Part shown: positions 2 to 46,977 of the stretch, in pieces
How the letters are laid out: each line of letters starts with the position of its first letter
Position numbering within the stretch: position 1 is the stretch's first letter
NCBI GenBank assembly: GCA_934098445.1
Contig: CAKOOW010000002.1
Location: 1-47,470 of the forward strand
Direction: 5' to 3'
DNA from: an uncultured Bacilli bacterium
Lineage (GTDB): Bacteria; Bacillota_I; Bacilli_A; RF39; UBA660
Length of the DNA stretch: 47,470 nt
Made by a program: the position numbers and the translations under genes
Notes under the pieces: model-generated
Told to the model about the DNA's origin: nothing
Seen by the model: the letters and a program-made list of their open reading frames with translations, nothing else
Database searches by the model: none

Positions 2-499
2 GCGGATAATGTATTCTGTAATGATCGAAGTATGGCTGGTAATAACTCTGGGACGGGATCTGGAGTTAGTAGAACTCTTTATAGATGGCATAGCTTACCA
101 TGGTGGATTGGTGGTTATAATTCTAGTATGAGATTAATATGTCCCCAAAAGAATGACGCCTTTACGGTAAGTGATACTACTAATGGTAATGGAGCTTTAA
201 CATATCCTGTTGGTCTTTTAAGTGCAGATGAGATTGTACTAGCTGGTGGATGGGGTGATGAAAATAGTGGTTATTACTTATACTCGGGGCAGTGGTGGTT
301 TGCTTCCTCGCCGATCCGCTTCCTTGATGTCGACAATCGCGGCGCTCTCGAGCGTGGTGTGTATTCGAATGGCAGTGCGGGCGACTACTATGGCGATGTG
401 GAATACAAAGCCGGGGTTCGGCCAGTTTTCAATCTGAAGGCTGAAGTGCTGACACAAGGCTCTGGGACAGTATCTGATCCTTATCGCATTTCTTCGTAG
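2..499 (+). CDS. 3' part of a surface-protein paralogue (5' end outside the window) with a hypervariable C-terminal block; DGR-target-like
   Basis: The frame is open from the window edge. It aligns with the last ~160 aa of ORFs 40726..42195 and 42759..44009 (FCNDRS, CPQKNDAFTVSDT, GNGALTY, ADE(I/V)VLAGG, G-x-RPVFNL). Confidence 0.85.
   Translation, partial: ADNVFCNDRSMAGNNSGTGSGVSRTLYRWHSLPWWIGGYNSSMRLICPQKNDAFTVSDTTNGNGALTYPVGLLSADEIVLAGGWGDENSGYYLYSGQWWFASSPIRFLDVDNRGALERGVYSNGSAGDYYGDVEYKAGVRPVFNLKAEVLTQGSGTVSDPYRISS
302..424 (+). repeat. Variable-region-like block VR1 (GC-rich hypervariable segment ending in cgg cca = RP)
   Basis: Hand count gives 70/120 G+C for 301-420 against about 28% in the flanks. 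It occupies the same position as the VR blocks of the two paralogues. The scaffold residues F...V-x-S-x-G...G-x-RP are kept and the other positions differ. Confidence 0.7.
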
Positions 500-23175: not shown

Positions 23176-24711
23176 ATGAAAAAGCCGATAACAGGACGGT
23201 TGGCTGCTGCTATAATACTTAGTTTTTGTATTATCATAACTAGTAATAAGTCTTTTTATGGAAAAGCTTTGGCAAGTGATGGAGGAAAAATCGAAGATTT
23301 AACTGATTATCCGGAAGAAATATCTTCTATAAAGATATTTAAAGATAAAGATAATCTTTTAAGTAACGAGGAACTACAGAGACTAAGAAATCTTTCTTAT
23401 AAGCCTTGTACCTATGAATTTAAGGGAAGCATAGAAGATTTATATAATATTATTATTTTAAATAGTAATAATTATCTTAAAGATACGGATTATTCTAGTA
23501 TTTTAGAGATTAAAGAAGATTATATAAGAGAGTATGTTATTAAGACTATTAAAGATATAATTAAAAGAAATTTAAAAGAAGAGAGAAAAGATAATATTCA
23601 TAAGTTAATATCTCTTAAGATTGTTATTGGTTCTTTAGAAGAGGATACTTTAGGACAATATGATTTTAAAGAAAATTTGATTATCTTAGATATGGAGAAA
23701 ATTCTTGGGAAAAGTAGTTCTATAGATGATATTAATATGAATCTATTTGATTGTTTAAATCATGAGTTTAATCATGCTTTTCAAGGATCTTGTAGTGGTA
23801 AGTTAATTAATAATACTTCTTTTATTTTAGAGAGTAGTGCAGAATCTTATAATTATAATATTTTAAAGAATGATTATAAATTTGTTAATAGTAGATATGA
23901 ATATGGATATGCTTATTTAGAAGAAAGAAAATATGAGAGTAAGTTATTTTTACTTAGTCTTTTAGATAATAAGAGGTCTATAGAAGAGTATTATGATGCT
24001 ATTGATAAAGGAGATATAAAGAGGTTATTTGCTTTTCTAGATTTAAATAGTATTGAAGAACAGAATGAATTTTTAGAGGGGATATGGTTGGCAGATGGGA
24101 TCCTTTTAAGGAATAATTATTGGAGTAGAATCGTAAAGTCTGATGATTTTGATAGTCTTAAGGATTATAATATTGATGAGTTATTGATGAGAGAAGCAGC
24201 TGGGGCTTATGAGAGTTTTATCTTGAAGATGGCGGTTAAAGGCTTGATGAAATATAATATTTTGAATAATGATTTAAGTTTAGAAGATAATTTATTGTTA
24301 TATCATTTTATTTTAATAAATGTTTTAGATAGGGTAAGTTTTAATGATTATAATTATGCTACTTGTGAAGTTAGTTATACTTTTTATCAGGATTTTTTTG
24401 ATCATTATTTACAAATAGAAGAGATATTCTTTAGATTTTTAGGGTCTTATTATAATTATTCGGAAGAAGAGATAAGATCTATAGATGATAGTTTAGATAA
24501 AGATAAGATAGTAAATGGGATTAATAATTATTTAAATACGGGGTATTGTCTTAATGAAGATAAATATATTAAAGAATTAATTGATAAATATCCAAAGATA
24601 AGAATAATTAGACAGAGTGGGGTTATTTTAGCTAATTTTAACTATAATAATTTAAGAAATATAAGAGATAGGAAATATTCTAAAGATGGGATTAAGCTTA
24701 TTTTGAAGTAG
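23176..24711 (+). CDS. secreted HExxH (gluzincin-like) protein, paralogue 1
   Basis: Signal peptide ending ALA-S, HEFNH motif, and a downstream acidic segment ILESSAESYNY that could supply the third ligand. Confidence 0.55.
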   Translation: MKKPITGRLAAAIILSFCIIITSNKSFYGKALASDGGKIEDLTDYPEEISSIKIFKDKDNLLSNEELQRLRNLSYKPCTYEFKGSIEDLYNIIILNSNNYLKDTDYSSILEIKEDYIREYVIKTIKDIIKRNLKEERKDNIHKLISLKIVIGSLEEDTLGQYDFKENLIILDMEKILGKSSSIDDINMNLFDCLNHEFNHAFQGSCSGKLINNTSFILESSAESYNYNILKNDYKFVNSRYEYGYAYLEERKYESKLFLLSLLDNKRSIEEYYDAIDKGDIKRLFAFLDLNSIEEQNEFLEGIWLADGILLRNNYWSRIVKSDDFDSLKDYNIDELLMREAAGAYESFILKMAVKGLMKYNILNNDLSLEDNLLLYHFILINVLDRVSFNDYNYATCEVSYTFYQDFFDHYLQIEEIFFRFLGSYYNYSEEEIRSIDDSLDKDKIVNGINNYLNTGYCLNEDKYIKELIDKYPKIRIIRQSGVILANFNYNNLRNIRDRKYSKDGIKLILK

Positions 24712-24767
24712 TATTTACTTTTGAAATATTTTATGTATAATAGAGGCTAATTGATGGGGGTATTTTA

Positions 24768-26429
24768 GTGAAAAATACAAACAGAAGAATAGTAGCTTCT
24801 TTATTAATTTTTAGTATCCTTATAACCGGATGTTCTAAAGATAAGAATAATAAGATAGATATGCTTAGTTATGTAGAGAGTCCTAAAGACAGGGAAAATA
24901 GTATTAGAATGGTGGTTGGAAAAGATTTTAATACTATAGACATGATGGGAATAGAAGATGTATTTGGAATAGATGAAGAGATAGAAAAGTCTTTAAATAC
25001 TAAGAGTGAGGATTGTACTTATAATTATTATGGAAATATAAATAGTTTGTTTTATAAGATTATTAATAATAGTAATGAATATGCTAAAGATAATGATATT
25101 TATGATTCTGTTTTTGATGAAGAGTTTTATAATAATATTGATTATACTAATTGTTTTGGGGTTTTCTTTGATAAAGATAAATTAGATAAGATAAGAGAAA
25201 GTATTCTAATAGCTTTAGAAAGTTATATAAGTTATATTTATGGGACGGGGAATAAAGAGGACATTCATAATATTTTAGATTTAAAGATAGTGGTATTTAA
25301 AGATAAAGAGTTGGAGAAACCTAATACTTATGGAGATTATGATAGTACGGATAATCTTATTAGAATTAGTTTTTATAATATCTTAGAGTCAGGTTGGGAA
25401 CTTGATGATATAATGGCTCGGATGGATGAGGTTATGAAACATGAACTTAATCATTCTATGGAACATAGTTGTCAAGATAAGATGGAAAATGGGGCTTTAG
25501 AGGAGATTGATTTTCTTAATGAGAGGTATTATAGTTTTTTGACGGAAGCCGCGGCAGAATCATCTTTGTATAATCTAGGGATTGCTAGTGGTTATGAAGC
25601 TAAGGGAGTAGTTTTTTATTATACTTATGATGAGTATAGGGCTTTAGAAAATAAGTTATTATTATGTTCGGTTTTTCAAAAGAATAGGAAGTTAGAGGAT
25701 TATTATCGGTATATTAATAATGAGGATATAAATGGTCTTTTAGAGTTTTTAGGCGCTAATTCTTTAGAAGAGAAGAAAGAGTTATTTAGAGTAGTATATG
25801 CGATGGATGCTTTAGTCGGAAGAAATATGTATCCATATGATGTTTTAGGAGATAAAGATAAATATTCAAAGGAAGATATTATAAGACTTCATGATAAGAT
25901 TGGTTATCAACATTATATAAGTATTCTAAAATATAGTCTTAATTCTTTAATAGATTATAATCTTAAAGAAGAGTTATTATCATTAGAGGATAATTTACTT
26001 TTATATTATATAGTAGTTAATAGTATTTTAGATGATTGTTTCTTTATAGATGATAGTAGTGGGTATAATATTTATTATTGTTATGAAGATTTTGTTGATA
26101 ATTATTATCAAATAGAAGATAGTTTCTTTAGGATATTAGAAGTTATGTATCATAAAGATTATGAGGATATAAAGAGTCTTTATAATGAGTATAAAGATAT
26201 AGATATTATGAAGAGTATGACTTATCTAAGTAATGGTAATGTTAATATAGATAGTAATACTAGTCTTCATGAGAAATTAGAAAAGTTATTGGAGAAGTTT
26301 CCTGGTCTTGGGGTTGTCTCTAATACTTACTATTATAATGGTTATATTAGTAATTGTAATTATGTTAAGTTATTAGATAAAGTTATTGATTCCGAGAATA
26401 AAGATAATACTTTAAGACTAAGAAAGTAA
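24768..26429 (+). CDS. lipoprotein HExxH (gluzincin-like) protein, paralogue 2
   Basis: GTG start, lipobox LITGC, HELNH motif, LTEAAAESSLYN. It is collinear with 23176..24711 (shared LSLEDNLLLY(H/Y)). Confidence 0.55.
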   Translation: MKNTNRRIVASLLIFSILITGCSKDKNNKIDMLSYVESPKDRENSIRMVVGKDFNTIDMMGIEDVFGIDEEIEKSLNTKSEDCTYNYYGNINSLFYKIINNSNEYAKDNDIYDSVFDEEFYNNIDYTNCFGVFFDKDKLDKIRESILIALESYISYIYGTGNKEDIHNILDLKIVVFKDKELEKPNTYGDYDSTDNLIRISFYNILESGWELDDIMARMDEVMKHELNHSMEHSCQDKMENGALEEIDFLNERYYSFLTEAAAESSLYNLGIASGYEAKGVVFYYTYDEYRALENKLLLCSVFQKNRKLEDYYRYINNEDINGLLEFLGANSLEEKKELFRVVYAMDALVGRNMYPYDVLGDKDKYSKEDIIRLHDKIGYQHYISILKYSLNSLIDYNLKEELLSLEDNLLLYYIVVNSILDDCFFIDDSSGYNIYYCYEDFVDNYYQIEDSFFRILEVMYHKDYEDIKSLYNEYKDIDIMKSMTYLSNGNVNIDSNTSLHEKLEKLLEKFPGLGVVSNTYYYNGYISNCNYVKLLDKVIDSENKDNTLRLRK

Positions 26430-29777: not shown

Positions 29778-29922
29778 AATTAAGGCTTTTTCTTTGCCTA
29801 AAAGAATCTTTAGTTTACTATGGGTATTTATTAAATATTTAATAAAAAAATTTTTAAAAAGGTCATTTTAGGGCTGGACAAATGATTGAAATGGTGTTAA
29901 CATCTAGCTACTGGTTGGAGTG

Positions 29923-31395
29923 ATGGTTTTGGGAGAGTTAGTATTTATTGATGAGGGTTTATCTAAAGATGAGGTTAATAGAAGAAAGGATATTGTTAAG
30001 AGATATTTTAATCTAATAATGGAAAGTTATGTTCGGGTTACTGGGGATAATGTCATTAGACTTGCTAATCTGGAAGAATATATAGCTATGATACTAAGAG
30101 TTGTTTTTAGAATAGAAGGATTTAAAGAGAAGTTTAATTCTAAAGACTTTTGGGTTTCTTTATATATAAGTATCTTAATGAGAGAGAATAAAGAAGCTGG
30201 GAGAAACGGATTATTTAATGAAGGCGCGATGTCTTTAGATCATTGTTATTTTTATATTTCTTTAGGGTTTTATGATTATGATGCTTTAAAGATAAGTGAG
30301 TTTTTAGTAAGTGATGATAGAAAGACTAAGGATATTTTAAAGAATTGGTTAAAAGAACAGGTTAGATTTCATTGTTGTAATTATTTATTAGGAGTAGTTT
30401 TAATCTTGATGAAGAGGATAGATGGGTATTTCTATGAAAATTTTAATGATATATTTAGAGTAATGAATCAGACTAGTTCTAGTTTATTAGTAGATAAACA
30501 ATATAAAAATATTTCTAATGATAAGATGGAATTACCTAAGATTACTAAGGAAGAGATAGATTCTTTAATTGAAGGTTTCTTTAAGAATATTAAGGCTCCT
30601 GAATGGTGGAATCAAGAGTATATAGAGTTAAAAGAAAAGGGAAAAATTAGTTTTATCGAAGGAGAAACTTCTCTTATTAATAATAGTATTTATCATGCAG
30701 ATACGGGTATTATAGAAATCGATTTACGGGGAAATATTATGGATTTTCCTACTTTGGTTCATGAACTTACTCATTATTTTGTTGGTAAGACCAAAAGAGA
30801 TAATTTTATTTTAGATGAATTGCCTTCAATATATATGGAAGAATTAGCGCTTTCTTATTTAGAGAGCATTGGTTATGATAGAAATGTCATTGCGTTTATG
30901 CAAAATCATCGGGTTTTATCTAATTTTTCTGTTTACGAATCTCTTTTTAATAATTTGGCTCTTGTTAATAAATATAAGAAGAAGGGAATTGTTATTAAGG
31001 AAGATTTAATGCAACCGTTTATAGAGGCTAATAAAGAGCTTAAGGAATGGCGAGAAAAAATGGTTAATTTGGCTTTAAAACAGGGTAGAGATATTCCAGA
31101 GACTTTAAGTGATGATTATTCAATAAATCCAGAAGAGGCTGCTATAGATATGGTTGATCGGGAGATAGATAATATCATAGGTAATGGGAATATGATCTTT
31201 GATGGGTGTCAGTATCTTTTAGGGACTATGATAACTAAAGAGTTAATGAATAGACCTAAAGAGGAAGTGTTACCAGAGATGTTTAATTTGATTAATAAGA
31301 TAGATGAGTATGATTTAGAAAGAGTAGTAAATTCCTTGGGAATAGATATTTTAAAGAAGGATAAGAAAGAAGAGAGAGTCTTAAAGAAAGGGTAA
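29923..31395 (+). CDS. cytosolic HExxH (gluzincin-like) protein, operon gene 1
   Basis: No signal peptide. HELTH motif followed by LDELPSIYMEELALSYLESIGY. Paralogous to 31401..32756. Confidence 0.55.
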   Translation: MVLGELVFIDEGLSKDEVNRRKDIVKRYFNLIMESYVRVTGDNVIRLANLEEYIAMILRVVFRIEGFKEKFNSKDFWVSLYISILMRENKEAGRNGLFNEGAMSLDHCYFYISLGFYDYDALKISEFLVSDDRKTKDILKNWLKEQVRFHCCNYLLGVVLILMKRIDGYFYENFNDIFRVMNQTSSSLLVDKQYKNISNDKMELPKITKEEIDSLIEGFFKNIKAPEWWNQEYIELKEKGKISFIEGETSLINNSIYHADTGIIEIDLRGNIMDFPTLVHELTHYFVGKTKRDNFILDELPSIYMEELALSYLESIGYDRNVIAFMQNHRVLSNFSVYESLFNNLALVNKYKKKGIVIKEDLMQPFIEANKELKEWREKMVNLALKQGRDIPETLSDDYSINPEEAAIDMVDREIDNIIGNGNMIFDGCQYLLGTMITKELMNRPKEEVLPEMFNLINKIDEYDLERVVNSLGIDILKKDKKEERVLKKG

Positions 31396-31400
31396 GATTT

Positions 31401-32756
31401 ATGGATGAGATTGAAGTTTTTACAAGAGGATTAAGTTCGGAAGAAATAAATAATCGGGTTAAAGTGTTTGATTTATGTGGTGGTTTAATTAATAAATATG
31501 TTCAGATGACTAGTGATTACTTAGTTGATATGGTTAATTTAGAGGATTATTTAACTAAAGTAATTAATACTATTCTTAAAGATGAGAAGTTTATGAAGGG
31601 AATAGATAGTCAAGAGTTTTTAGCGGGTAACTATCTTTTAATAGAGACTTCTAAAGATAATGAAAGAATTAATGATGCTTATATTCTTAGTGCTTTTTCT
31701 TATTATAAGAGTGATGCTAAAAGAATAGTAGAGTTTTTAATTAACTATGATGAAGTAAGAAAATTAGCGATTAAAAATTGGCTAAAAGATGAAAGTTATC
31801 TAAAGATATATAATTATTTACTTAGTAATTTAACTTTAAAGTTAGAATCTTATGATAAGAATGCTTTAAGTTATTTAGATAGTCTTTTAGAGTTAATGAG
31901 TTTAAAGAAAAATAGTTATGTTTTTGATGAGGGGTTTTCTGAAAGAAAGTTATCTTTAGAAGAGTCAGATAATTTAGTAGAAGGTTTCTTTTCTTATTTA
32001 GGAGCTCCTAAAGAATTGATGAATAATTATCTTTATTTAAAGAGAAATAATTCAATTCAAGACAAAAAGTCATTTAGAGAAGGTAATGGTAATTGTTATT
32101 TAGATAAGGATGGTCTTTGGAAGATAGAGTTAGAAAGAACGGGAACTACTAAAGATTTTATTGTTTTTATTCATGAATTTACTCATTTTATTAGTGTAAG
32201 TGGGAATAGGGATTCTTTCTTCTTGAGTGAGTTACCTTCTATGTATATGGAAAGTTTAGCAGCCTCTTACTTGGAAAGTCTTGGATATGGAGATAATCTA
32301 AGAGAAGAAATTTTAAGAGAAAGAAACAATTATTGTTTAAAAAAATACTTAATAAATAGATCTTTATACCAAGATTTAGTAACTTTTAGAAAAGTTGGTT
32401 ACCTGAGAGAAGAAAGTTTTGAAGATAAGGTTTCAGGAAAGGTGAAATTTGTAAGAAATAGAGGAGCTTTTAATAATAATGATGTGTCTTTAGAAAGAAC
32501 AAAGAAAGTTCTTTGGAAAGAAAATATTTCAAAGATTTTAGATACGGGGGTTAATTCAGTTCATGGAATAGCCTATTTACTAGGACTTATAATAACTGAA
32601 GAATTGGTAAGAAGACCTAAGGAGGAAGTATTACCGGAGATGTTTAATTTAATTAATAAGATTGATGAGTATGATTTAGAAAGAGTAGTAAATTCTTTGG
32701 GAATAGATATTTTAAAGAAGGATAAAGAAGAAGAAAGTGTCTTAAAGAAAAAGTGA
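31401..32756 (+). CDS. cytosolic HExxH (gluzincin-like) protein, operon gene 2
   Basis: HEFTH motif followed by LSELPSMYMESLAASYLESLGY. The last ~47 codons are almost identical to those of gene 1. Confidence 0.55.
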   Translation: MDEIEVFTRGLSSEEINNRVKVFDLCGGLINKYVQMTSDYLVDMVNLEDYLTKVINTILKDEKFMKGIDSQEFLAGNYLLIETSKDNERINDAYILSAFSYYKSDAKRIVEFLINYDEVRKLAIKNWLKDESYLKIYNYLLSNLTLKLESYDKNALSYLDSLLELMSLKKNSYVFDEGFSERKLSLEESDNLVEGFFSYLGAPKELMNNYLYLKRNNSIQDKKSFREGNGNCYLDKDGLWKIELERTGTTKDFIVFIHEFTHFISVSGNRDSFFLSELPSMYMESLAASYLESLGYGDNLREEILRERNNYCLKKYLINRSLYQDLVTFRKVGYLREESFEDKVSGKVKFVRNRGAFNNNDVSLERTKKVLWKENISKILDTGVNSVHGIAYLLGLIITEELVRRPKEEVLPEMFNLINKIDEYDLERVVNSLGIDILKKDKEEESVLKKK

Positions 32757-38195: not shown

Positions 38196-38319
38196 GGTAA
38201 AATGACAAAGAAAAAGTTAAAGTATGTTTTTAGAAGAAAATGGAAAACTAAAGAAGAAAAATGTTTACAAATGATGGTAAAATAAGTATGATAAAAGAAA
38301 TTTGAAAAGAGGGAATGCT

Positions 38320-40272
38320 ATGTTTGAATTAGTATCAAAATATCAACCTAGTGGCGATCAACCAGAAGCTATTAAAGAATTAGTCGAAGGAATAAATGCT
38401 GGCAAGAAAGAACAGGTTTTACTGGGAGCCACGGGAACAGGTAAAACTTTTACGATTGCCAATGTTATTGCTAAAACGAATAAACCAACGTTAGTACTTG
38501 CTCATAATAAGACTCTTGCCGGACAATTGTATTCGGAGTTAAAAGAATTCTTTCCACATAATCATGTTGAATACTTTGTATCCTATTATGATTATTATCA
38601 ACCAGAAGCTTATGTTCCTTCGAGTGATACTTATATTGAAAAGGATAGCTCTATTAACGATGAGATTGATGAATTAAGACATGGGGCGACTAGTAGTCTA
38701 ATTAATAATCGAGATGTTATAGTAGTAGCTAGTGTGTCTTGTATCTATGGAATTGGAGATAAAGAAGACTATGTTAATTCGATGTTAATACTTAGTGTAG
38801 GACAGAAGATTAGTAGAGGATATATCTTAGATAGATTAGTAGATATGACTTATGAGAGAAATGATTTAGACTTTCATAGAGGGACTTTTAGAGTACATGG
38901 TGATACTATTGATATTATTATGGCTAGTGAAAAGGCGCATGGGGTAAGAATAGAGTTATTTGGAGATGAAGTAGATAGAATAGCAATATTTGATCCTTTG
39001 ACGGGGGGAATAGAAAAACAAGTTAAGAATATATCTATATTTCCAGCGACGCATTTTGTTACGAGTAAAGATAAGTTAAATGAAGCGATAAGAAGAATAC
39101 AAGAAGAGTTAGAGGAAAGATTAAAGTATCTTAAAGATAATAATAAATTAATAGAAGAACAAAGATTAAGAGAAAGAGTTAACTATGATATAGAGATGCT
39201 AAAAGAAACAGGCTTTTGTAATGGAGTAGAGAATTATTCTAGACATTTAGCTTTAAGAGGAGAAGGAGAGACTCCTTCGACTTTGATGGATTTCTTTCCT
39301 AAAGACTTCTTATTAGTAGTAGATGAATCTCATGTAACATTACCACAAGTAAGAGGAATGTATAATGGGGATAGGATGCGTAAACAAACACTTGTAGATT
39401 ATGGATTTAGATTACCTAGTGCTTTAGATAATAGACCTCTTAAGTATGAGGAGTTTGAAAGAAAGATTAATCAAGTTATTTATGTATCAGCAACACCAGG
39501 AGACTTAGAATTAGAACATACGCATAATCAGTATGTAGAACAGATAATAAGACCGACAGGATTATTAGATCCAGAGATTGAGATTAGAAAGACTGAAGGT
39601 CAAATAGATGATATTATCAGTGAAATTAATATTCGAAAGAAGAGAAATGAAAGAGTATTAATAACTACTTTGACTATTAGAATGGCAGAAGAATTAACTA
39701 ACTATTTAAAAGAAGTAGGTATTAAAGTAGAATATTTACATAGTGAGGTTAAGACTTTAGATAGACTTAAAATTATTCATGATTTAAGATGCGGTAAGTA
39801 TGATTGTGTAGTAGGTATTAACTTATTAAGAGAGGGTATAGATATACCTGAGGTATCTTTAATATGTATTATGGATGCGGATAAGCAAGGATTCTTAAGA
39901 AGTACAAGGAGTTTAATTCAGACTGTTGGTAGAGCCGCTAGAAATGCTAATGGACATGTTATTATGTATGCAGATACAGTAAGTGATGCAATGGATGAGA
40001 CTATCAAAGAGACTAATAGACGTCGTAGTATTCAAGAAAAATATAATAAAGAACATGGAATAGTTCCTAAGACTATTATTAAAGAAATAAGAGAAGTTGT
40101 TTCTAATGAGATTAAAGAAGATAATAGTACTAAGAAGACAAAGATGAATAAGAAAGAGAAAGCTTTATTAATGCAATCAATTGAGACGCAGATGAATGAG
40201 GCTGCTAAGAATTTAGACTTTGAAAGGGCTATGGAGTTAAGAGATATCTTATTTGAGATGAAAAGTAATTAA
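38320..40272 (+). CDS. uvrB: excinuclease ABC subunit B
   Basis: [11 protein letters not shown], Walker [18 protein letters not shown]-terminal UVR motif ([11 protein letters not shown]). ATG 38320 follows the aaaagaggg RBS. An extended -10 tggtaaaat lies at 38273-38281. Confidence 0.95.
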
Positions 40273-40278
40273 AAAATT

Positions 40279-40308
40279 GTTACCTATATGCTAGGTAACG
40301 ATTTTTTT
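40279..40308 (+). terminator. uvrB rho-independent terminator
   Basis: Stem gttaccta / taggtaac with a 5-nt loop, followed by gattttttt. Confidence 0.75.
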
Positions 40309-40360
40309 AAGTTCTATGTATATATTCTATTTATATGGATATATTAAATTTATTTATATA

Positions 40361-40388
40361 TTTTCATAGAGTTGAAAACTCTATGAAA
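40361..40388. repeat. left copy of a perfect 28-bp inverted repeat (itself a hairpin: ttcatagagtt-gaa-aactctatgaa)
   Basis: ttttcatagagttgaaaactctatgaaa is the exact reverse complement of 40627..40654. The complementary loop triplets (gaa versus ttc) show the copies are inverted, not direct. Confidence 0.85.
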
Positions 40389-40483
40389 GCTAACTTTCGG
40401 ATACTATTCTTACTTTATAACATAACTATATCATAGAAAATAGGCTTTTTAAAGAAAAAGTCATTAGTTTAACTATTCTTTTG

Positions 40484-40595
40484 TAGTCAAATTTCTAGTC
40501 AAGTAAATATTCTTCAAATCTAGGTGAATATTGGTCTTGTAAGACATTATCATAGTTAGAAAATCAAATCTATTCTAGTCAAAAATTCTAGTCAA
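40484..40595. repeat. four TAGTCAA (TTGACTA on the minus strand) boxes in two pairs spaced 12-13 bp
   Basis: Boxes at 40484-40490, 40496-40502, 40576-40582 and 40589-40595. Three share the longer form ttctagtcaa. Confidence 0.7.
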
Positions 40596-40623
40596 ATAGT
40601 CTTTAAGACCAGTATTCACCTAG
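40520..40623. repeat. inner imperfect inverted repeat pair (40520..40545 and 40599..40623)
   Basis: ctaggtgaatattggtcttgtaagac compared with the reverse complement ctaggtgaatactggtcttaaagac shows 1 mismatch and a 1-nt indel. Each arm ends in a small gtctt/aagac palindrome. Confidence 0.75.
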
Positions 40624-40626
40624 TAT

Positions 40627-40654
40627 TTTCATAGAGTTTTCAACTCTATGAAAA
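40627..40654. repeat. right copy of the perfect 28-bp inverted repeat
   Basis: tttcatagagttttcaactctatgaaaa is the reverse complement of 40361..40388. Confidence 0.85.
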
Positions 40655-40725
40655 GTGTAAAGAAATGTAAAGTATATTATTCTTATAAATGGTTATTCTA
40701 TATGTGAATATTACCTATAGATAGG

Positions 40726-42195
40726 ATGGCTTCTGGAATTATGAAAAAGTTTAATAAAGATAAATATTTAAAACAAATGGAATTTAAAAGATTTTATAGA
40801 AAATATGAAAGATACTTTTATATCGGTATTCCTTGTCTTTTAGTAGGTATCTTAGGAATATATTTTGCTTATTCAAAATTTACTACTACGGCTGATGAAG
40901 AAGTAGTAAAAACAACTGTTGGTGATTTTATTTATGGTGATGTAGTTATTAATAATTATGTTAATGGTGAGTATGTAGTTGAGGCTCCAGCCCAAGCCAC
41001 TGGATATAAAGTTGATAAAATTGTTTGTGATAATGGTGCCATTGGCGAATGGAATGCTAGAGATTGGGGACCAATTATTTCTAATGTAACTAAAAGAAGT
41101 AAATGCAATATTTATTTTGTGAATACTGAAAAGATAAATATTGGTAATGTGGCTGTGCCATTAGATGCTTATGGACTTTGTCCAACAGTAAATGCAGACG
41201 GGACAGCAACGGTTACGGAAGGAGAAAGCACATACGGCTATTTATGCAGTATGAAAGATGCTTATGGGACAAGCTATTACTATCGTGGTAATGTAACAAA
41301 TAACTATGTAAAATTTGGAACATGGTCTAATGATACACCGTCAATATTTGCTGATAGATATGGCGAACTGTATGATTCTTTAGATGATTGCAAAAACCAA
41401 GAAGATTCATCTGATTGTACTGAGATAATTCGTGCTGGAAAAGATATGTATTGGCGTATAATTCGTATAAACGGTGATGGTACGGTAAGAGTTATATATG
41501 ATGGTACGAGTGCTAGTTCAAACGGTGAATCTAGTAGTTATAGGCAAATTGGTACTACGGCTTTCAATAGCTCTAATGGTAATGCTTATATTGGTTATAT
41601 GTATGGTAAAGATGATGCATCAACCTATGCTGAGACCCATGCTAATACCAATAATTCAACAATAAAAACTTATCTTGATACATGGTATGAGAATAATATT
41701 AAAGGGACAACAAATGAACAATATATTGCCGATAATATATTTTGTAATGATCGTAGCTTTGCTCCAAATAATACTGGGAAAGGTACTTCCGCCTATTTTA
41801 CATATTATCGCTGGTACAATGATGCTGGCACTACGCAAAACAGTAAAATGATGTTGACATGTCCACAGAAAAATGATGCTTTTACAGTAAATGATACAAT
41901 TAAAGGAAATGGTGCTTTAACTTATGGCATAGGTTTGTTAACGGCTGATGAAGTAGTATTAGCTGGAGGCTTGGGTTCAAGTAATTTAAATTATTACCTC
42001 CATAGTGGGCAAGACTATTGGCTTGCTTCGCCTGGCAGCTTCTACGGCCACACTTATGAGCGTAATGTGAGTTCCGACGGTCACTCGATGGAACGCCGTA
42101 TCGACTACTCGTTTGGGGCTCGTCCAGTTTTTAATCTGACATCTGATATATTAAAAAATGGTGATGGGATATCTAGTAATCCTTATCACGCGTAA
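40726..42195 (+). CDS. membrane-anchored surface protein, DGR-target-like paralogue with C-terminal variable block VR2
   Basis: N-terminal TM anchor (YFYIGIPCLLVGILGIYFAY). Conserved body shared with 42759..44009 (YWRIIR-NGDG-VRVIYDGTSA, FCNDRSFAPNN, MLTCPQKNDAFTV). A WLASP...G-x-RPVFNL C-terminal module contains the GC-rich block. The start could be ATG 40726 or 40741. Confidence 0.85.
   Translation: MASGIMKKFNKDKYLKQMEFKRFYRKYERYFYIGIPCLLVGILGIYFAYSKFTTTADEEVVKTTVGDFIYGDVVINNYVNGEYVVEAPAQATGYKVDKIVCDNGAIGEWNARDWGPIISNVTKRSKCNIYFVNTEKINIGNVAVPLDAYGLCPTVNADGTATVTEGESTYGYLCSMKDAYGTSYYYRGNVTNNYVKFGTWSNDTPSIFADRYGELYDSLDDCKNQEDSSDCTEIIRAGKDMYWRIIRINGDGTVRVIYDGTSASSNGESSSYRQIGTTAFNSSNGNAYIGYMYGKDDASTYAETHANTNNSTIKTYLDTWYENNIKGTTNEQYIADNIFCNDRSFAPNNTGKGTSAYFTYYRWYNDAGTTQNSKMMLTCPQKNDAFTVNDTIKGNGALTYGIGLLTADEVVLAGGLGSSNLNYYLHSGQDYWLASPGSFYGHTYERNVSSDGHSMERRIDYSFGARPVFNLTSDILKNGDGISSNPYHA
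42022..42126 (+). repeat. Variable-region-like block VR2 (collinear with the TR at 42372..42479)
   Basis: The 12-nt 5' boundary cttgcttcgcct and the 3' end cgtcca are identical to the TR. About 56% GC by hand count (42021-42120). Differences from the TR fall mostly on TR adenines. Confidence 0.8.
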
Positions 42196-42226
42196 GTGTA
42201 AATATTGCTTAAACGAAGACGATATT

Positions 42227-42266
42227 GTCGCAGAATAAATCTATTCTGCGACCGCCGATTTTTTTA
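42227..42266 (+). terminator. GC-containing hairpin plus T-run downstream of the VR2 gene (terminator; possibly also a DGR-associated hairpin)
   Basis: Perfect 11-bp stem gtcgcagaata / tattctgcgac with a 4-nt loop, followed by cgccgattttttt. Confidence 0.7.
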
Positions 42267-42371
42267 ATTTAAACACGGTTACTGGTTGTGTTACTTGTAG
42301 CCGTGACAAATTAAAATCTTTATATTGATAATATAAAGTTGGCTTATTCTATATAATACGAGTTAGTCTTA

Positions 42372-42479
42372 CTTGCTTCGCCTAACAACTTCAACGGCAA
42401 CAATGCTAATGGGTGTAATGTGAATTCCAACGGTAACTTGAACAACAACAATGTCAACAACTCGAGTGGGGGCCGTCCA
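42372..42479 (+). repeat. DGR-type template repeat (TR)-like non-coding element, Asn-codon (AAC/AAT)-rich
   Basis: There is no start codon and an in-frame stop lies 5 codons upstream. In the target frame it reads LASPNNFNGNNANGCNVNSNGNLNNNNVNNSSGGRP. 16 of the 33 codons from cct to cca are AAY. It is collinear with VR2 and VR3. Confidence 0.8.
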
Positions 42480-42758
42480 TATTCCTGCTAAGATTGGTAA
42501 ATAACTAATGTCACTCATGATAAAGGGCTATGGCTTTTTATTGCAAGAAGTAACCTTTTAAGACTAGAAATAATATCTATTTGATTTTTTTAAACAAAGT
42601 TAAATATGGTACCAAACTTTTATAAGGTAATCTATATTTTAGATTGGAAACAAGAATAAACCAGTGGTAATTAACCCGAACATATGGCATAGATGCCTTT
42701 AAACATGCTTTAAAGGCTAAATACTATGTCACAAAATTAATATGGGAGATATATTAAG

Positions 42759-44009
42759 ATGAGTAAAAATAAAAAAAGAAAAAAACTATTTATTATTTTA
42801 AGTATAGTGTGTTTACTTACTATAAGTAGTATTAGTTTTATTTATTATAAGCAGGGTACAAAAGTTGAATCTATTATTGGGGCATATATAGATGGTGAAT
42901 ATTCAACAACATTACCATCTAAAGGTAGTGGCTATGCTGTTGAAAAAATTGTTTGTGATAATAATAAAAGTGCCAGTTGGGATAATGTTAAATGGGGGCT
43001 TAAATTATCTAATTGGAGTACAAGAAGTAGATGTAATATTTACTTTAAAAGTCTAGAAAGTTTTACAATAGCAAGTAAAACATTTTACTTAGATGAAATG
43101 CAAAGATGTCCATCTATGAATAGTGATGGAACTGTTACTGTAACGGGAGCTGAAGATACTTATGGATATTTATGTAAAGCAAAAGATGTCTATGGTGATT
43201 CTTATTATTTTAGAGGTAATGTAACAAATAATTATGTTTTATTTGCTGATAAATATTGGCGTATTATTAGATATAATGGTGATGGCTCAGTAAGAGTAAT
43301 TTATGATGGAACATCAGCACATGCTAATGGTGAATCAAGTACCGATAGACAAATAGGAACAAGTGCTTTCAACAGTAGTTATAATGATAATGCTTATGTA
43401 GGGTATATGTATGGTAAAGTTGGAGCTTCAACATATGCTGAAACACATGCTAATATTAATAATTCCACAATAAAAACATATATAGATACTTGGTATGAAA
43501 ATAATATTAAAGGTACCTCTAATGAAAAATATATAGTTGATAATGTTTTCTGTAATGACCGCAGTTTTGCTCCCAATAATAGTGGGACAGGTGCTGGAAA
43601 GAGTAGCACTTATTATCGTTGGTATAACTTTGCAAACACTTCAAATAACAATAAGATGATGTTAACATGTCCGCAAAAAAACGATGCTTTTACTGTAAGT
43701 GATACTTCTAAAGGAAATGGCGCCTTAACATATGGGATTGGTTTGGTAACAACTGATGAAGTAGTTTTAGGTGGTGGATGGAATTCTTATAATTCTAATT
43801 ATTATTTACGTACTGGTGATGAGTATTGGACATCTTCCCCTTATTATTTTAGCGGCAGCCGCGCTTATGGGCGTCATGTTTTTTCGGACGGTTATGCTAA
43901 CGACTACTACAGTGTCTACAATACTTATGGTGTCCGCCCAGTTATCAATCTAAGCTCTGAGATTCTAAATAACGGTGATGGGACAGCTAGTAATCCATTC
44001 CATCCGTGA
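42759..44009 (+). CDS. membrane-anchored surface protein, DGR-target-like paralogue with C-terminal variable block VR3
   Basis: N-terminal Lys-rich segment plus TM anchor. Same conserved body as 40726..42195. C-terminal YWTSSP...GVRPVINL module with a GC-rich block. RBS tgggaga lies upstream. Confidence 0.85.
   Translation: MSKNKKRKKLFIILSIVCLLTISSISFIYYKQGTKVESIIGAYIDGEYSTTLPSKGSGYAVEKIVCDNNKSASWDNVKWGLKLSNWSTRSRCNIYFKSLESFTIASKTFYLDEMQRCPSMNSDGTVTVTGAEDTYGYLCKAKDVYGDSYYFRGNVTNNYVLFADKYWRIIRYNGDGSVRVIYDGTSAHANGESSTDRQIGTSAFNSSYNDNAYVGYMYGKVGASTYAETHANINNSTIKTYIDTWYENNIKGTSNEKYIVDNVFCNDRSFAPNNSGTGAGKSSTYYRWYNFANTSNNNKMMLTCPQKNDAFTVSDTSKGNGALTYGIGLVTTDEVVLGGGWNSYNSNYYLRTGDEYWTSSPYYFSGSRAYGRHVFSDGYANDYYSVYNTYGVRPVINLSSEILNNGDGTASNPFHP
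43839..43940 (+). repeat. Variable-region-like block VR3
   Basis: 34 codons from cct to cca. Collinear with the TR, including the gct-N-ggg block, with one extra codon. Scaffold codons are conserved and the AAY positions are replaced (mostly by Tyr, Ser, Asp). Confidence 0.7.
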
Positions 44010-44013
44010 AATT

Positions 44014-44057
44014 AAAGAATAATAAATACTAGAGAGGTAGAGTTTATTATTCTTTTT
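44014..44057 (+). terminator. AT-rich hairpin terminator after the VR3 gene
   Basis: 13-bp stem aaagaataataaa / tttattattcttt with a 16-nt loop, then tt. There is only one G:C pair, so it is weak. Confidence 0.4.
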
Positions 44058-44133
44058 AAATTCTAAAGAAAGATATATACTAAATAAGAGGAATTATGCT
44101 ATAATACCACTAGCAAAGAGGAAGTGTATTTAT

Positions 44134-45747
44134 ATGAAGAAGACATATGTCATAGGACATAAAAAACCGGATACAGATTCAGTATGTGCTTCAATTAGTT
44201 ATTCTTATCTAAAGAATAAGTTAGGTTGGGAGACTGAACCTAGAGTATTAGGGAATATTAATAAAGAGACTAAGTTTGTCTTAGATTATTTTAAAGTAGA
44301 AGAACCTAGATATCTTAATGATGTAAAAGTAGAGATTAAAGATATGGCTTATCTTAAAGAAGCGTATATTAATGAACATACATCAATAGAAAAGACATTT
44401 AAAGAGTTACAAAGATTAGGAGTAACAGGATTACCTTTAGTAGATGAGAATCATAAATTAAAGGGATATATTAATGTTAAAGAGATGGCTAAGAATATTA
44501 TAGAGGGTGATTTATATGAATTAAATACATCTTATGATAATATCTTAGAAGTATTAGATGGTAAAGAAATATTAAGATTTGATGATGAGATAAAGGGTAA
44601 TATAATTGCAGCTGCTTATAAGAGTAAGACTTTTACGGAGAGAGTAGAACTTGATAATAGTAATATTTTAATAGTAGCTGATAGACAATATATCATTGAT
44701 TATGCAATTGATAAGGGTGTTAAATTAATTATTATTGTCGGAGATAGAGTATTCCCGGAAGAGTTATTAGAAAAAGCTAAGAAGAATAAAGTTAATATAA
44801 TTAGTACACCAGATTCTACTTATGCGACTGCTAATAGAATGAAGTTATGTAATTATATTGAGACGGTTAATATTAATCCCAATCCCATTAAGTTTACGGA
44901 TTCTGATTATCGTGATAATTTTGTTAGTATTTCCAATAAATATGGTCATACTAACTATCCAATAGTTGAACAAGATAATACTTGTATTGGGATGTTAAGA
45001 TTAATAGATCAAAATAACTATGAGAAATATAATGTTATTTTAGTAGATCATAATCAACCAGCTCAAAGTGTTGATGGGTTAGAAGAAGCTAATATTATGG
45101 AAATAATTGATCATCATAATCTAGGTAACTTGGGTACACAAATGCCTATTCAATTTAGATCAATGCCAGTAGGTTGTACTTGTACTTTGATTTATCAAAT
45201 CTATAAAGAAAATAATATTGAAATTCCTGAGAATATTGCGGGTTTAATGTTAAGTGCTATTCTATCAGATACATTATTATTAAAGAGTCCAACGACTACG
45301 GAGATGGATGTAGAAGTAGCTCGTAAATTAGCTGCTATTGCTAATTTAGATATTCAAGAATATGGGATGGCTATGTTAAAAGCTGGTTCATCTATTAAAG
45401 GAATGACTATTCCCGAGATAGTTGAACAAGACTTTAAGACCTTTAAACTAGGAGATGTTTCTTTAGGAATAGGACAAGTTATGACTATGGATTTTGAAGA
45501 AATAGCTAAAGATATGTATAAGTATATTGAACATTTAGATGATATGTGCGTTAGAAATAATTATAAAGTAGCAGTTTTATTTGTTACTGATCCTGTGAAG
45601 AATGGTTCATATGTTATTTATAGTACTGGTAATGATGATTTAATTAAAGAAGCTTATAAAGATAGTAATTTAGTTGAAGGTACATATCTTGATGGTATGG
45701 TATCAAGAAAGAAACAAATGTATCCACAACTTGCAGCGGTAATCTAA
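44134..45747 (+). CDS. ppaC: family II (DHH-DHHA2) inorganic pyrophosphatase with a CBS/DRTGG insert
   Basis: GHKKPDTDSV (DHH motif I), VDHNQ, IIDHHNLG, DHHA2 motif LSAILSDTLLLKSPTTT. The insert of about 250 aa and the 537-aa length fit CBS-PPases. Confidence 0.8.
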   Translation: MKKTYVIGHKKPDTDSVCASISYSYLKNKLGWETEPRVLGNINKETKFVLDYFKVEEPRYLNDVKVEIKDMAYLKEAYINEHTSIEKTFKELQRLGVTGLPLVDENHKLKGYINVKEMAKNIIEGDLYELNTSYDNILEVLDGKEILRFDDEIKGNIIAAAYKSKTFTERVELDNSNILIVADRQYIIDYAIDKGVKLIIIVGDRVFPEELLEKAKKNKVNIISTPDSTYATANRMKLCNYIETVNINPNPIKFTDSDYRDNFVSISNKYGHTNYPIVEQDNTCIGMLRLIDQNNYEKYNVILVDHNQPAQSVDGLEEANIMEIIDHHNLGNLGTQMPIQFRSMPVGCTCTLIYQIYKENNIEIPENIAGLMLSAILSDTLLLKSPTTTEMDVEVARKLAAIANLDIQEYGMAMLKAGSSIKGMTIPEIVEQDFKTFKLGDVSLGIGQVMTMDFEEIAKDMYKYIEHLDDMCVRNNYKVAVLFVTDPVKNGSYVIYSTGNDDLIKEAYKDSNLVEGTYLDGMVSRKKQMYPQLAAVI

Positions 45748-45930: not shown

Positions 45931-46977
45931 ATGCAAAAAAGTATAGAAAAAATAAGAAAAAGAGTAAGGTGGAAAACTATTCCAGAAGATAAGATAATTG
46001 GCTTGTGTTACGATTTCATGTTTTGCCAAGTATTTGGGGATAAAAATTTGAGCTTTGCTACTAATATATTACTGGCAGATGTTACTAATTTAGATCTTAG
46101 GGATTTAGAAGGAAATATCGAGTATTTAAACCGAGATTTAAAAATCTATCAAAAGAAAGAAATGCTTAATAAAGTAGATATTTTATTAAAGTATAATGGC
46201 GAATATTATAATATTGAGATGAATACGGATATTTCGATGTTACGAAGAAATAAAGTATATAGAGGTCGAATTGAAAGTGATAATCTAAGATTAGGAGATA
46301 CGGATTATAGTAATATAGCCAAATTGGTCCAAATCAACTTTAATAATTTTGATAGTAAAAAAAAGAGACTAGTTTCCATAAGTCAGTTAGTAGATCAAGA
46401 TGGAATTGTAGATGATGATGATCTTGTATACAATATTTCAATGAAATTTACTAATAAAATGTGGTATACTTGTCTTGATGAGAGAGAAAAAAAAGTATTT
46501 CTTTGGTGTCAGTTAATGAATACTGAGGATTTATCAACTTTCAAAGAAAGGGCTGAAAAACTTATGGGAAAAGAAAAAGCAAAAATTTTTGTTGACCGTG
46601 TTTATGAATTGTCGCATGATTCAAAAAACATAGCCTTATATACTAAACTTAGTAATGATGAAATGGTTAAAAACACATGGGTTAAAGAGCTTAATGAAAA
46701 AGAGGAAGATTTGAATAAGAAGTCAGAGGATTTAGACAAAAAGTCAGAAGATTTGGATAAAAAGTCAGAGGATTTAGACAAGAAGTCAGAGGATTTAGAC
46801 AAAAAATCAGAAGATTTGGATAAAAAATCAAATGATTTAGCTAAAGAAAAAGAATCCTTACAACAAGATAAGACAACAATTATTAGGAATCTCTTGAATG
46901 CCGGTTTTAAAGTGGAAGAGATTGCTAAAATGATTAATATGTCTTTAGAAGATATTAAGAAGATAAAGAATAGTTAA
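45931..46977 (+). CDS. Rpn-family / PD-(D/E)XK nuclease-family putative transposase with an internal heptapeptide repeat
   Basis: N-terminal D-F-M-F-x-x-V-F-G box and the VDILLKYNGEYYNIEMN (D...E-x-Q/N) nuclease core typical of the PDDEXK_2/Rpn family. A helix-turn-helix-like tail follows the repeat. Confidence 0.65.
   Translation: MQKSIEKIRKRVRWKTIPEDKIIGLCYDFMFCQVFGDKNLSFATNILLADVTNLDLRDLEGNIEYLNRDLKIYQKKEMLNKVDILLKYNGEYYNIEMNTDISMLRRNKVYRGRIESDNLRLGDTDYSNIAKLVQINFNNFDSKKKRLVSISQLVDQDGIVDDDDLVYNISMKFTNKMWYTCLDEREKKVFLWCQLMNTEDLSTFKERAEKLMGKEKAKIFVDRVYELSHDSKNIALYTKLSNDEMVKNTWVKELNEKEEDLNKKSEDLDKKSEDLDKKSEDLDKKSEDLDKKSEDLDKKSNDLAKEKESLQQDKTTIIRNLLNAGFKVEEIAKMINMSLEDIKKIKNS
46705..46851 (+). 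repeat. in-frame 21-bp tandem repeat, 7 units (EDL(N/D)KKS x6 plus one degenerate unit)
   Basis: Units of gaRgatttRgaYaaRaaRtca start at 46705, 46726, 46747, 46768, 46789 and 46810. The degenerate unit starts at 46831. Confidence 0.9.

Follow-up and report, generated by a model that had tools for sequence, protein, structure and literature searches.

A probable stand-alone template unit, apparently dormant, of a diversity-generating retroelement in a gut Bacilli lineage with its reverse transcriptase at another locus

The template repeats (TRs) of diversity-generating retroelements (DGRs) usually lie directly beside the reverse transcriptase (RT) gene (PMC5758913). How should a locus be understood that has a TR and target genes with variable regions (VRs), and no RT? 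The question is raised by a stretch of 47,470 nucleotides from an uncultured Bacilli bacterium (contig CAKOOW010000002.1, hereafter the window). Its matching contigs come from metagenomes of the human gut, Hadza samples among them. The window has a G+C content of 28.5%. It shares 95.6-96.6% identity with "uncultured Tenericutes bacterium UMGS735" (L015; the sequences compared are designated by L and P numbers) across the uvrB region, and approximately 90-92% with Mycoplasma sp. CAG:956 (L008) across other housekeeping stretches. A preliminary description had reported two full target genes and a TR between uvrB and a pyrophosphatase gene, a third target paralogue truncated at the window start, and no RT or Avd, and had proposed either an RT acting in trans or a decaying cassette. 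The layout was confirmed (Table 1). The best explanation, which we consider probable, is that the spacer between targets 1 and 2 is a stand-alone DGR template unit, part of a multi-target, multi-template chromosomal DGR with a distant RT, and that this copy is dormant. The unit appears to consist of its own promoter, a 108-nt adenine-rich TR and about 260 nt of structured RNA. The lineage is that of gut Bacilli of the Mycoplasma sp. CAG:956/UMGS735 group, and the sole avd-RT operon found there is at a different conserved locus.

The TR and VR1 differ at 18 of the 33 TR adenines and at 9 of the 72 non-adenines (Fisher p = 1.7e-5), and two 3-nt indels separate them as well. Chance similarity between the two sequences was considered and rejected on the basis of this p value plus the family context. 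The target family comprises more than 6000 clusters; its members are 60-80% conserved outside one block and hypervariable solely within it, from "SP..F" to "ARPV.NL". The adenine bias, the G+C-rich VRs and the hypervariable family block therefore identify the relation between the TR and VR1 as a DGR signature, albeit not a clean one. TR homologues were found in L101 and L118, and the CAG:956 copy (L008) is 93% identical. At one place VR1 has GAGCGT, like L101, and the window TR has GGGTGT; judged by the A1-type TRs of L101 and L008, several of the mismatches between the TR and VR1 arose on the TR side.

Each VR was also compared with the TR classes found in relatives. Against its best TR class, VR1 has 7-9 non-adenine mismatches and 3 gap columns. 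The best TR for VR2 is the A2-type TR of L021 (22 changes of adenine to another base, 9 at non-adenines, no gaps; 8-9 non-adenine mismatches against the best class as a whole), and the fit of VR2 to the window's own TR is worse. The best TR for VR3 is the RT-adjacent TR of L084, of the class designated TR-B (25 adenine changes, 6 non-adenine changes and 15 gap columns), and the 5' and 3' ends of VR3 are exactly those of TR-B. When VR1 and VR2 were compared with TR-B, 13-15 non-adenine mismatches were counted, a far worse match than to A-type TRs; the window TR itself departs from TR-B in both ends and backbone and belongs to another sequence class. The three VRs thus appear to derive from three different TR classes. 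None of them is identical to any TR found here at all non-adenine positions, the criterion given in PMC5758913, which allows minor exceptions. The account in the preliminary description needs one correction: for none of the three VRs is the TR a clean template, since non-adenine mismatches and 3-nt indels were present in each comparison. The refuting condition that it named, a cassette TR identical to these VRs outside adenines, had a negative outcome, as the RT-adjacent TR that was found differs at non-adenines from all three.

The TR is fused to a structured RNA, and a homologous tail follows every TR: the RT-less ones, the RT-adjacent ones and a short "mini" copy upstream of avd. Among the elements of the scaffold are a 10-bp stem capped by a UAUG tetraloop, 42-66 nt past the TR end, and an invariant AAUCUA/UAGAUU hairpin; the AUUCC directly 3' of the TR pairs with GGAA beyond this hairpin, a pairing backed by two independent double changes. 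The core shared by the tails is UAAUCUA-loop-UAGAUUGGAAACA. Covariation was assessed in 33 non-redundant tails at 25 base pairs; 96.7% were paired, as compared to 31-46% in slid controls, and 12 pairs had changed on both sides as compared to 6.2 +/- 1.3 in shuffles (0/500). When the sequences were folded individually, four further hairpins were preserved by compensatory changes, in the window copy as well. Among these four is a stem of 9-10 bp whose tetraloop is UAUG, UAAG, UACG or CGAG, a shape that fits the type of Avd-binding stem-loop reported just downstream of the TR (bioRxiv 10.1101/2023.10.23.563531, section 10). Folding of the window tail as a single sequence gives the same helices (z = -1.8). 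By analogy, the tail is an RNA of the kind that binds Avd-RT and primes cDNA synthesis in the Bordetella DGR. Identity between the window and CAG:956 is 93.5% in the region preceding the TR (42196-42364), 93% in the TR and 97.3% in the tail RNA, but 72-82% in the flanking target coding sequences, which indicates strong constraint on the TR-RNA module. In an Rfam scan of 40200-44200 the only match was to a small nucleolar RNA on the minus strand; it was sub-threshold and was taken as chance. A possible pairing of the TR leader with the tail (42364-42371 with 42559-42566), a candidate cPRT-stop duplex, was spotted by eye and no claim is made for it.

Table 1. Coordinates of the template unit, the target genes and their neighbours in the window
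Feature	Coordinates	Strand	Description	Location or basis
Template repeat (TR), class "A1"	42372-42479	+	108 nt, noncoding; 11 AAC and 5 AAT triplets	
Structured RNA scaffold	42480-42735	+	about 260 nt long, fused to the 3' end of the TR; homologous to tails of RT-adjacent TRs	
Sigma-70-like promoter match, best on + strand	42303-42332	+	GTGACA-18-GATAAT, 10/12; about 40 nt upstream of the TR	consensus match only
Spacer	42196-42758		563 bp; AAC-rich TR inside	
VR1	42022-42127	+	57% G+C	in target 1
VR2	43839-43941	+	47% G+C; class "A2" backbone	in target 2
VR3	293-425	+	56% G+C; TR-B-type flanks TGGTGG..GCTTCCTCGCCG ... GGGGTTCGGCCAG	in target 3
Target gene 1	40726-42195	+	489 aa; N-terminal membrane anchor and C-terminal variable domain	open reading frame
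Target gene 2	42759-44009	+	416 aa	open reading frame
Target paralogue 3, 3' part	2-499	+	truncated by the window start	open reading frame list
Probable terminator of target 1	42227-42265	+	hairpin GTCGCAGAAT/ATTCTGCGAC, then T-run	read from sequence
Inverted repeats, perfect, 28 nt	40361-40388 and 40627-40654		flank 238 bp that precede target 1	repeat search
uvrB	38302-40272			upstream neighbour of target 1
DHH/CBS/DHHA2 pyrophosphatase	44134-45747			downstream neighbour of target 2

The absence of an RT and of Avd from the window, as stated in the preliminary description, was borne out. When the window was searched by tblastn with RT and Avd proteins specific to the clade, the best match had an E value of 4, and neither RVT_1 nor bAvd was found in Pfam scans of the window open reading frames (ORFs) tested or among the precomputed Pfam matches on matching contigs. 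No RT or Avd was present in the 10 kb downstream of target 1 (L001) or in the 10 kb upstream of window position 1 (L007). The spacer that holds the TR has no ORF of at least 60 aa in the ORF list. The RT-less arrangement target-TR-target is kept across several genomes and includes no RT remnant.

One genome per species was searched with a target profile, and 76 loci were retrieved; they belong to CAG:956, UMGS735 and "Bacilli" metagenome-assembled genomes (MAGs) of Hadza origin, in which each genome has many target paralogues. RTs were found by means of a looser motif regular expression and Pfam; a strict RT motif regular expression gave nothing credible on the same loci. L019 and L020 encode an RT of 369 aa (RVT_1; IGNMSSQ...YMDD) and a bAvd protein of 117-121 aa, and the bAvd gene is immediately upstream of the RT gene in L019, L020, L084 and L086. 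Homologues of this RT with 95-99% identity are common in gut metagenomes. The context of the cassette is fixed: genes for Pth, Mfd, Fe-ADH/FIST and Aldedh, a target and TR-B are on one strand and RT and Avd on the other, and past RT-Avd are an AbrB/MazE-like gene and those for MetRS, TatD and KsgA. Since the RT gene is convergent to its adjacent TR, on the opposite strand, there is no TR RNA on the RT transcript. L084 shares 97.6-98.5% identity with the UMGS735 locus L013, and the avd-RT cassette therefore belongs to the species-level group of the window. TR-B and the VR adjacent to it differ at 18-25 adenines and at no other position (L084, L086, L087, L105 and L116). Between strains, the RT-adjacent VRs differ at TR adenines only, even when the RT protein is identical, and within one MAG (L019) two VRs located on other contigs differ from TR-B by 20/0 and 19/0 (adenine/non-adenine). 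These patterns indicate that the RT-adjacent cassette is active in genomes related to the window at approximately the species level.

Several further observations were made on these cassettes. In L150 (approximately 4980, minus strand), the RT-adjacent VR is two codons longer than its TR inside an AAC run and is otherwise adenine-only, which suggests slippage during cDNA synthesis on AAC repeats. Indels of 3 nt can thus occur in the AAC runs of an adenine-only VR, and indels alone are therefore weak evidence of decay. In L079 (11831-12766 of the complete MAG chromosome CP091726.1), a TR-like segment is directly followed by RT homology that is broken up among several reading frames, apparently an RT pseudogene and a case of real DGR decay in the clade. 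Upstream of avd there is a mini-TR (L084 6528-6800, plus strand; L019 at approximately 15243, minus strand; L020 at approximately 14242, minus strand; L147 at 2384, plus strand), which has the TR-B ends and scaffold and only 20 nt (TCTGTTTCTTATTCCTTGAC/GGC) where the template has 87 nt. On three contigs the RT-adjacent VR is replaced by exactly the insert of the mini-TR (L085 at 4111, minus strand; L019 at 11178, plus strand; L147 at 4906, minus strand), with one A-to-G difference in L085. The insert shifts the reading frame of the target, giving a protein of 411 aa that ends in SVSYSLAGFGQFSI instead of one of 453-454 aa. Insertion of the mini-template could be an OFF state driven by retrohoming. 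Since the VR retains its two homing ends, such a switch could be undone.

RT-less, AAC-rich TRs are not peculiar to the window. They lie just downstream of targets in L008, L009, L010, L011, L012 and L021, usually in the layout target-TR-target. A scan of metagenome contigs with the core of the tail returned 56 loci; in all, 89 module instances with 62 distinct tails were collected. Among viral contigs the core motif is nearly absent (2 matches in 2.9 million). At several RT-less modules the TR and a VR of the same locus differ almost exclusively at adenines, the adenine/non-adenine counts being 27/0 in L119, 18/0 in L134, 17/1 in L111 and 17/2 in L021; the approximately 1 kb downstream in L119 carries no RT. 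Tandem arrays, in which 2-6 modules with different TRs follow one another at intervals of about 415-435 nt, were found in L111, L095, L121, L107, L134 and L115. L111 has six modules; the arrays extend over 2150-5800 in L111, 2300-3809 in L095, 1550-4400 in L121 and 3560-4400 in L134. When read by eye, each array module seems to have its own promoter-like sequence. A nearby VR matches exactly one TR of the array, while the sister TRs differ from it at 9-19 non-adenine sites, and no RT was found by tblastn in the array stretches compared. The adenine-only matches at RT-less modules are indirect evidence, consistent with use of an RT encoded elsewhere, and the use of a distant RT fits the fact that the RT-adjacent TR, too, is on the opposite strand from avd-RT. 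Relatives also carry decayed AT-rich VRs and degraded TRs (L009, L010 and L076).

In the mechanism that we propose, Avd-RT would bind the scaffold of any TR RNA and copy the TR with errors at adenines, and the cDNA would then replace a VR that shares the GC-rich ends of that TR. A DGR of new architecture, in which the RT would act from elsewhere, is supported at the species level and at that of the wider family. The trans-acting RT of the preliminary description accordingly stands in part: an active avd-RT cassette occupies another locus in genomes of approximately the same species, and RT-less TRs in relatives differ from their VRs at adenines only, but no such match was seen for the window's own TR.

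The window's copy of the unit is nearly invariant. Over 40273-44133, identity between contigs of several samples is 100%. L003 has a few single-nucleotide polymorphisms (SNPs) and one indel, none of them in VR1, the TR or VR2. Both VR1 and VR2 are identical in L001-L006, L003 and L088/L089, and VR1 also in P0001. In L088/L089, 23 SNPs (1.8%) were counted in the non-VR part of target 1 and none in VR1, target 2 or VR2. The TR of L088 has a G>T change at 42397, a non-adenine position, and VR1 lacks it. VR polymorphism at TR adenines between strains, the sign of activity that was looked for, was not observed in VR1 or VR2. We conclude that VR1 and VR2 have not been rewritten for a long time, as compared to the RT-adjacent VR. 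The lack of an exact TR match at non-adenine sites and the invariance of VR1 and VR2 between strains are the reasons why the template and target set of the window appears to be dormant or very rarely used. Non-adenine substitutions together with invariance between strains are stronger evidence of decay than indels.

A number of results weigh against a stand-alone unit served by a distant RT. No VR matching the window TR at every non-adenine site was found in the loci compared or in the metagenome contig collection, and the use of this TR in trans is therefore without direct support. Within the 13-nt GC-rich end of the TR, 3 positions differ from VR1, and the tail begins directly after the TR with CCAT, a position at which 30 of 33 representative tails have CCAG. 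The evidence that links the RT cassette with the window reaches approximately the species level, short of the window's own strain; RT variants (P0124, P0128, P0129, P0256 and P0241) were found in the same cohorts as the window contigs, never in the same sample. The strong conservation of the module also sits uneasily with dormancy. The conserved module may serve another target, or its RNA may have another role.

An alternative is that the locus is a fossil, in which a complete cassette once existed, the RT has gone from the strain, and the TR and the three VRs are relics that drift or are kept as coding sequence only. The non-adenine mismatches and indels in every TR/VR comparison would be expected of such a relic, as would the invariance of VR1 and VR2 between strains and a TR mutation that was not passed to VR1, and decay does occur in relatives, as seen in the VRs and TRs of L009, L010 and L076 and the RT pseudogene of L079. 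However, genomes at approximately the species level keep an intact and active avd-RT cassette, the TR-RNA module is 93-97% identical to that of another species as compared to 72-82% for its neighbours, all the scaffold helices are intact, and the TR keeps 11 AAC triplets in a genome of 28.5% G+C. On balance we regard a fossil locus as unlikely. The decaying cassette of the preliminary description is therefore retained in so far as the TR and VRs mismatch at non-adenines and VR1 and VR2 no longer change between strains; loss of the RT from a cassette at this site does not agree with the constraint on the module or with an RT-less layout conserved without any RT remnant.

The exact TR-B ends of VR3 would be accounted for by a conventional DGR with remote targets, in which the RT-adjacent TR diversifies all three targets of the window and the window has only a superfluous duplicate TR. 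DGRs are known to have remote targets (PMC5758913), and those of TR-B can be demonstrated in a related genome. This explanation is nevertheless very unlikely. The window TR is of another class than TR-B, which also disposes of the possibility named in the preliminary description that it is a redundant copy of an RT-adjacent TR; the 13-15 non-adenine mismatches to TR-B already contradict it for VR1 and VR2; and even VR3 shows 6 non-adenine changes and 15 gap columns against the TR-B of L084, a TR-B from a relative and not from the window strain. We attach as little probability to the possibility that recombination or gene conversion among target copies, together with promoter inversion, is the main diversifier and that the TR-like segment has no current role. 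The locus is indeed a mosaic: its VRs fall in three TR classes, the uvrB locus of UMGS735 has a different target and no TR, L003 carries an extra paralogue in divergent orientation, and an invertible element lies upstream of target 1. Such processes can coexist with a stand-alone template unit, but they leave unexplained the adenine-specific TR/VR pattern (p = 1.7e-5), the G+C-rich VRs and the conserved structured RNA.

The system resembles the DGR of Bordetella phage BPP-1 (mtd-avd-TR-brt) in its adenine-rich TR, its C-terminal VR with adenine-biased differences and GC-rich shared ends, its structured RNA 3' of the TR with a tetraloop-capped stem of about 9-10 bp, and the presence in the lineage of an RT with IGNxxSQ and YxDD motifs and of Avd. 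Unlike BPP-1, the window TR is apart from avd and RT, both being absent from at least the 50 kb upstream and the 10 kb downstream, the element is carried by the chromosome and not by a phage, and the RT-adjacent TR of the lineage is on the opposite strand from avd-RT. One RT with several distant chromosomal targets, as in L019, is known from DGRs of the Treponema denticola type/Lineage 4 (Wu et al. 2018, PMC5758913); here, in contrast, the template and its RNA scaffold are themselves remote and belong to several distinct classes. RT-less loci, one of them without current variability, have also been described in Thiohalocapsa sp. PB-PSB1 (Dore et al. 2024, PMC10907252), where targets were considered as possibly "diversified in trans by an RT and/or TR encoded elsewhere". 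Those loci are described as disrupted or incomplete versions of full DGRs in a genome with several RT genes, whereas the RT-less TR unit described here is a conserved autonomous module with a shared scaffold, found in tandem arrays in relatives. Literature searches, which did not cover all journals, returned no account of autonomous TR-scaffold modules, of arrays of TRs or of a mini-template that shifts the reading frame. The arrays of L111, L134 and L095 may also be likened to the silent cassettes of Neisseria pilS/pilE and Borrelia vls, since several unexpressed templates lie near one expressed gene whose VR matches one of them. In pilS/pilE and vls the transfer takes place by DNA recombination, whereas the adenine-only differences seen here point to a route through RNA and cDNA.

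These comparisons led to a broader proposal, which we hold to be possible, if somewhat short of probable. The DGRs of these gut Bacilli would form a distributed network, in which one avd-RT operon serves many autonomous TR-scaffold RNA genes located between target paralogues or in tandem arrays; the choice of template would rewrite the fixed backbone of the VR, adenine mutagenesis would randomise it, and the 20-nt mini-template, by overwriting an 87-nt stretch, would produce an OFF state. If many portable TR-scaffold RNAs do share one RT, DGR evolution would have as its unit an RNA gene of about 400 nt and not the cassette. Template choice in arrays would add a second layer to programmed variation, and the mini-template, as an OFF switch, a third. 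DGR surveys anchor on the RT and seek the TR beside it, so that stand-alone TR modules are invisible to them, and they would underestimate how many variable proteins these abundant gut bacteria diversify. A small scaffold with conserved helices and a shared core would also offer a handle for engineering multiplexed DGR mutagenesis, in which a single RT would work on several templates. The window itself is of narrower value, as a clear but apparently dormant example.

The target proteins were examined separately. Target 2 is 61% identical to target 1 and target 3 approximately 51% (tblastn); the full target 3 gene, on the longer contig L007 (10552-12369), encodes 605 aa. The end of VR1 is 69 nt before the stop codon of target 1. 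Target 1 gave a weak match to DUF6273 (18.6 bits, under the cut-off of 23.5), and the RT-adjacent target paralogue scored 28.5 bits. A PDB sequence search with the target returned no match. An AlphaFold model built from 19 sequences was not usable (predicted local distance difference test, pLDDT, 46); the model used was built from 117 sequences and reached a pLDDT of 75 in the best model only. A Foldseek search of the PDB with it returned nothing at E <= 0.001 and weak C-type-lectin matches (E = 0.7-3).

The surroundings of the target genes vary among strains. In L088/L089, the region corresponding to window 40352-40677, which includes the perfect inverted repeats upstream of target 1, is in reverse orientation with 88.7% identity, and its flanks are collinear. 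The flipped segment (40361-40654 in the window, 5560-6000 in L088) suggests a phase-variable promoter switch. The Hadza strain L003 has its extra target paralogue, divergently oriented, between uvrB and target 1 (L003 1-700 versus window 40273-40400), and the different target at the uvrB locus of UMGS735 (L015) has a TR-B-type VR. The interval between uvrB and the pyrophosphatase gene is therefore a hotspot for paralogue exchange. The probable terminator of target 1 was not called by the terminator scan; its T-run begins 6 nt past the stem.

Outside the target loci, two pairs of adjacent paralogous genes (23176-26429 and 29920-32756) were detected in the repeat search. They encode proteins of 511 and 553 aa and of 491 and 451 aa, the repeats are 73-86% identical, and no Pfam match was found in the members scanned, the 451-aa gene being judged from precomputed matches only. 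A 21-nt tandem repeat of approximately 7-8 units (46685-46852), encoding EDLDKKS-like heptads, lies within the ORF at 45931-46977, whose product is a coiled-coil protein that resembles the N-terminal region of RNase Y and measures 327, 348 or 362 aa among strains.

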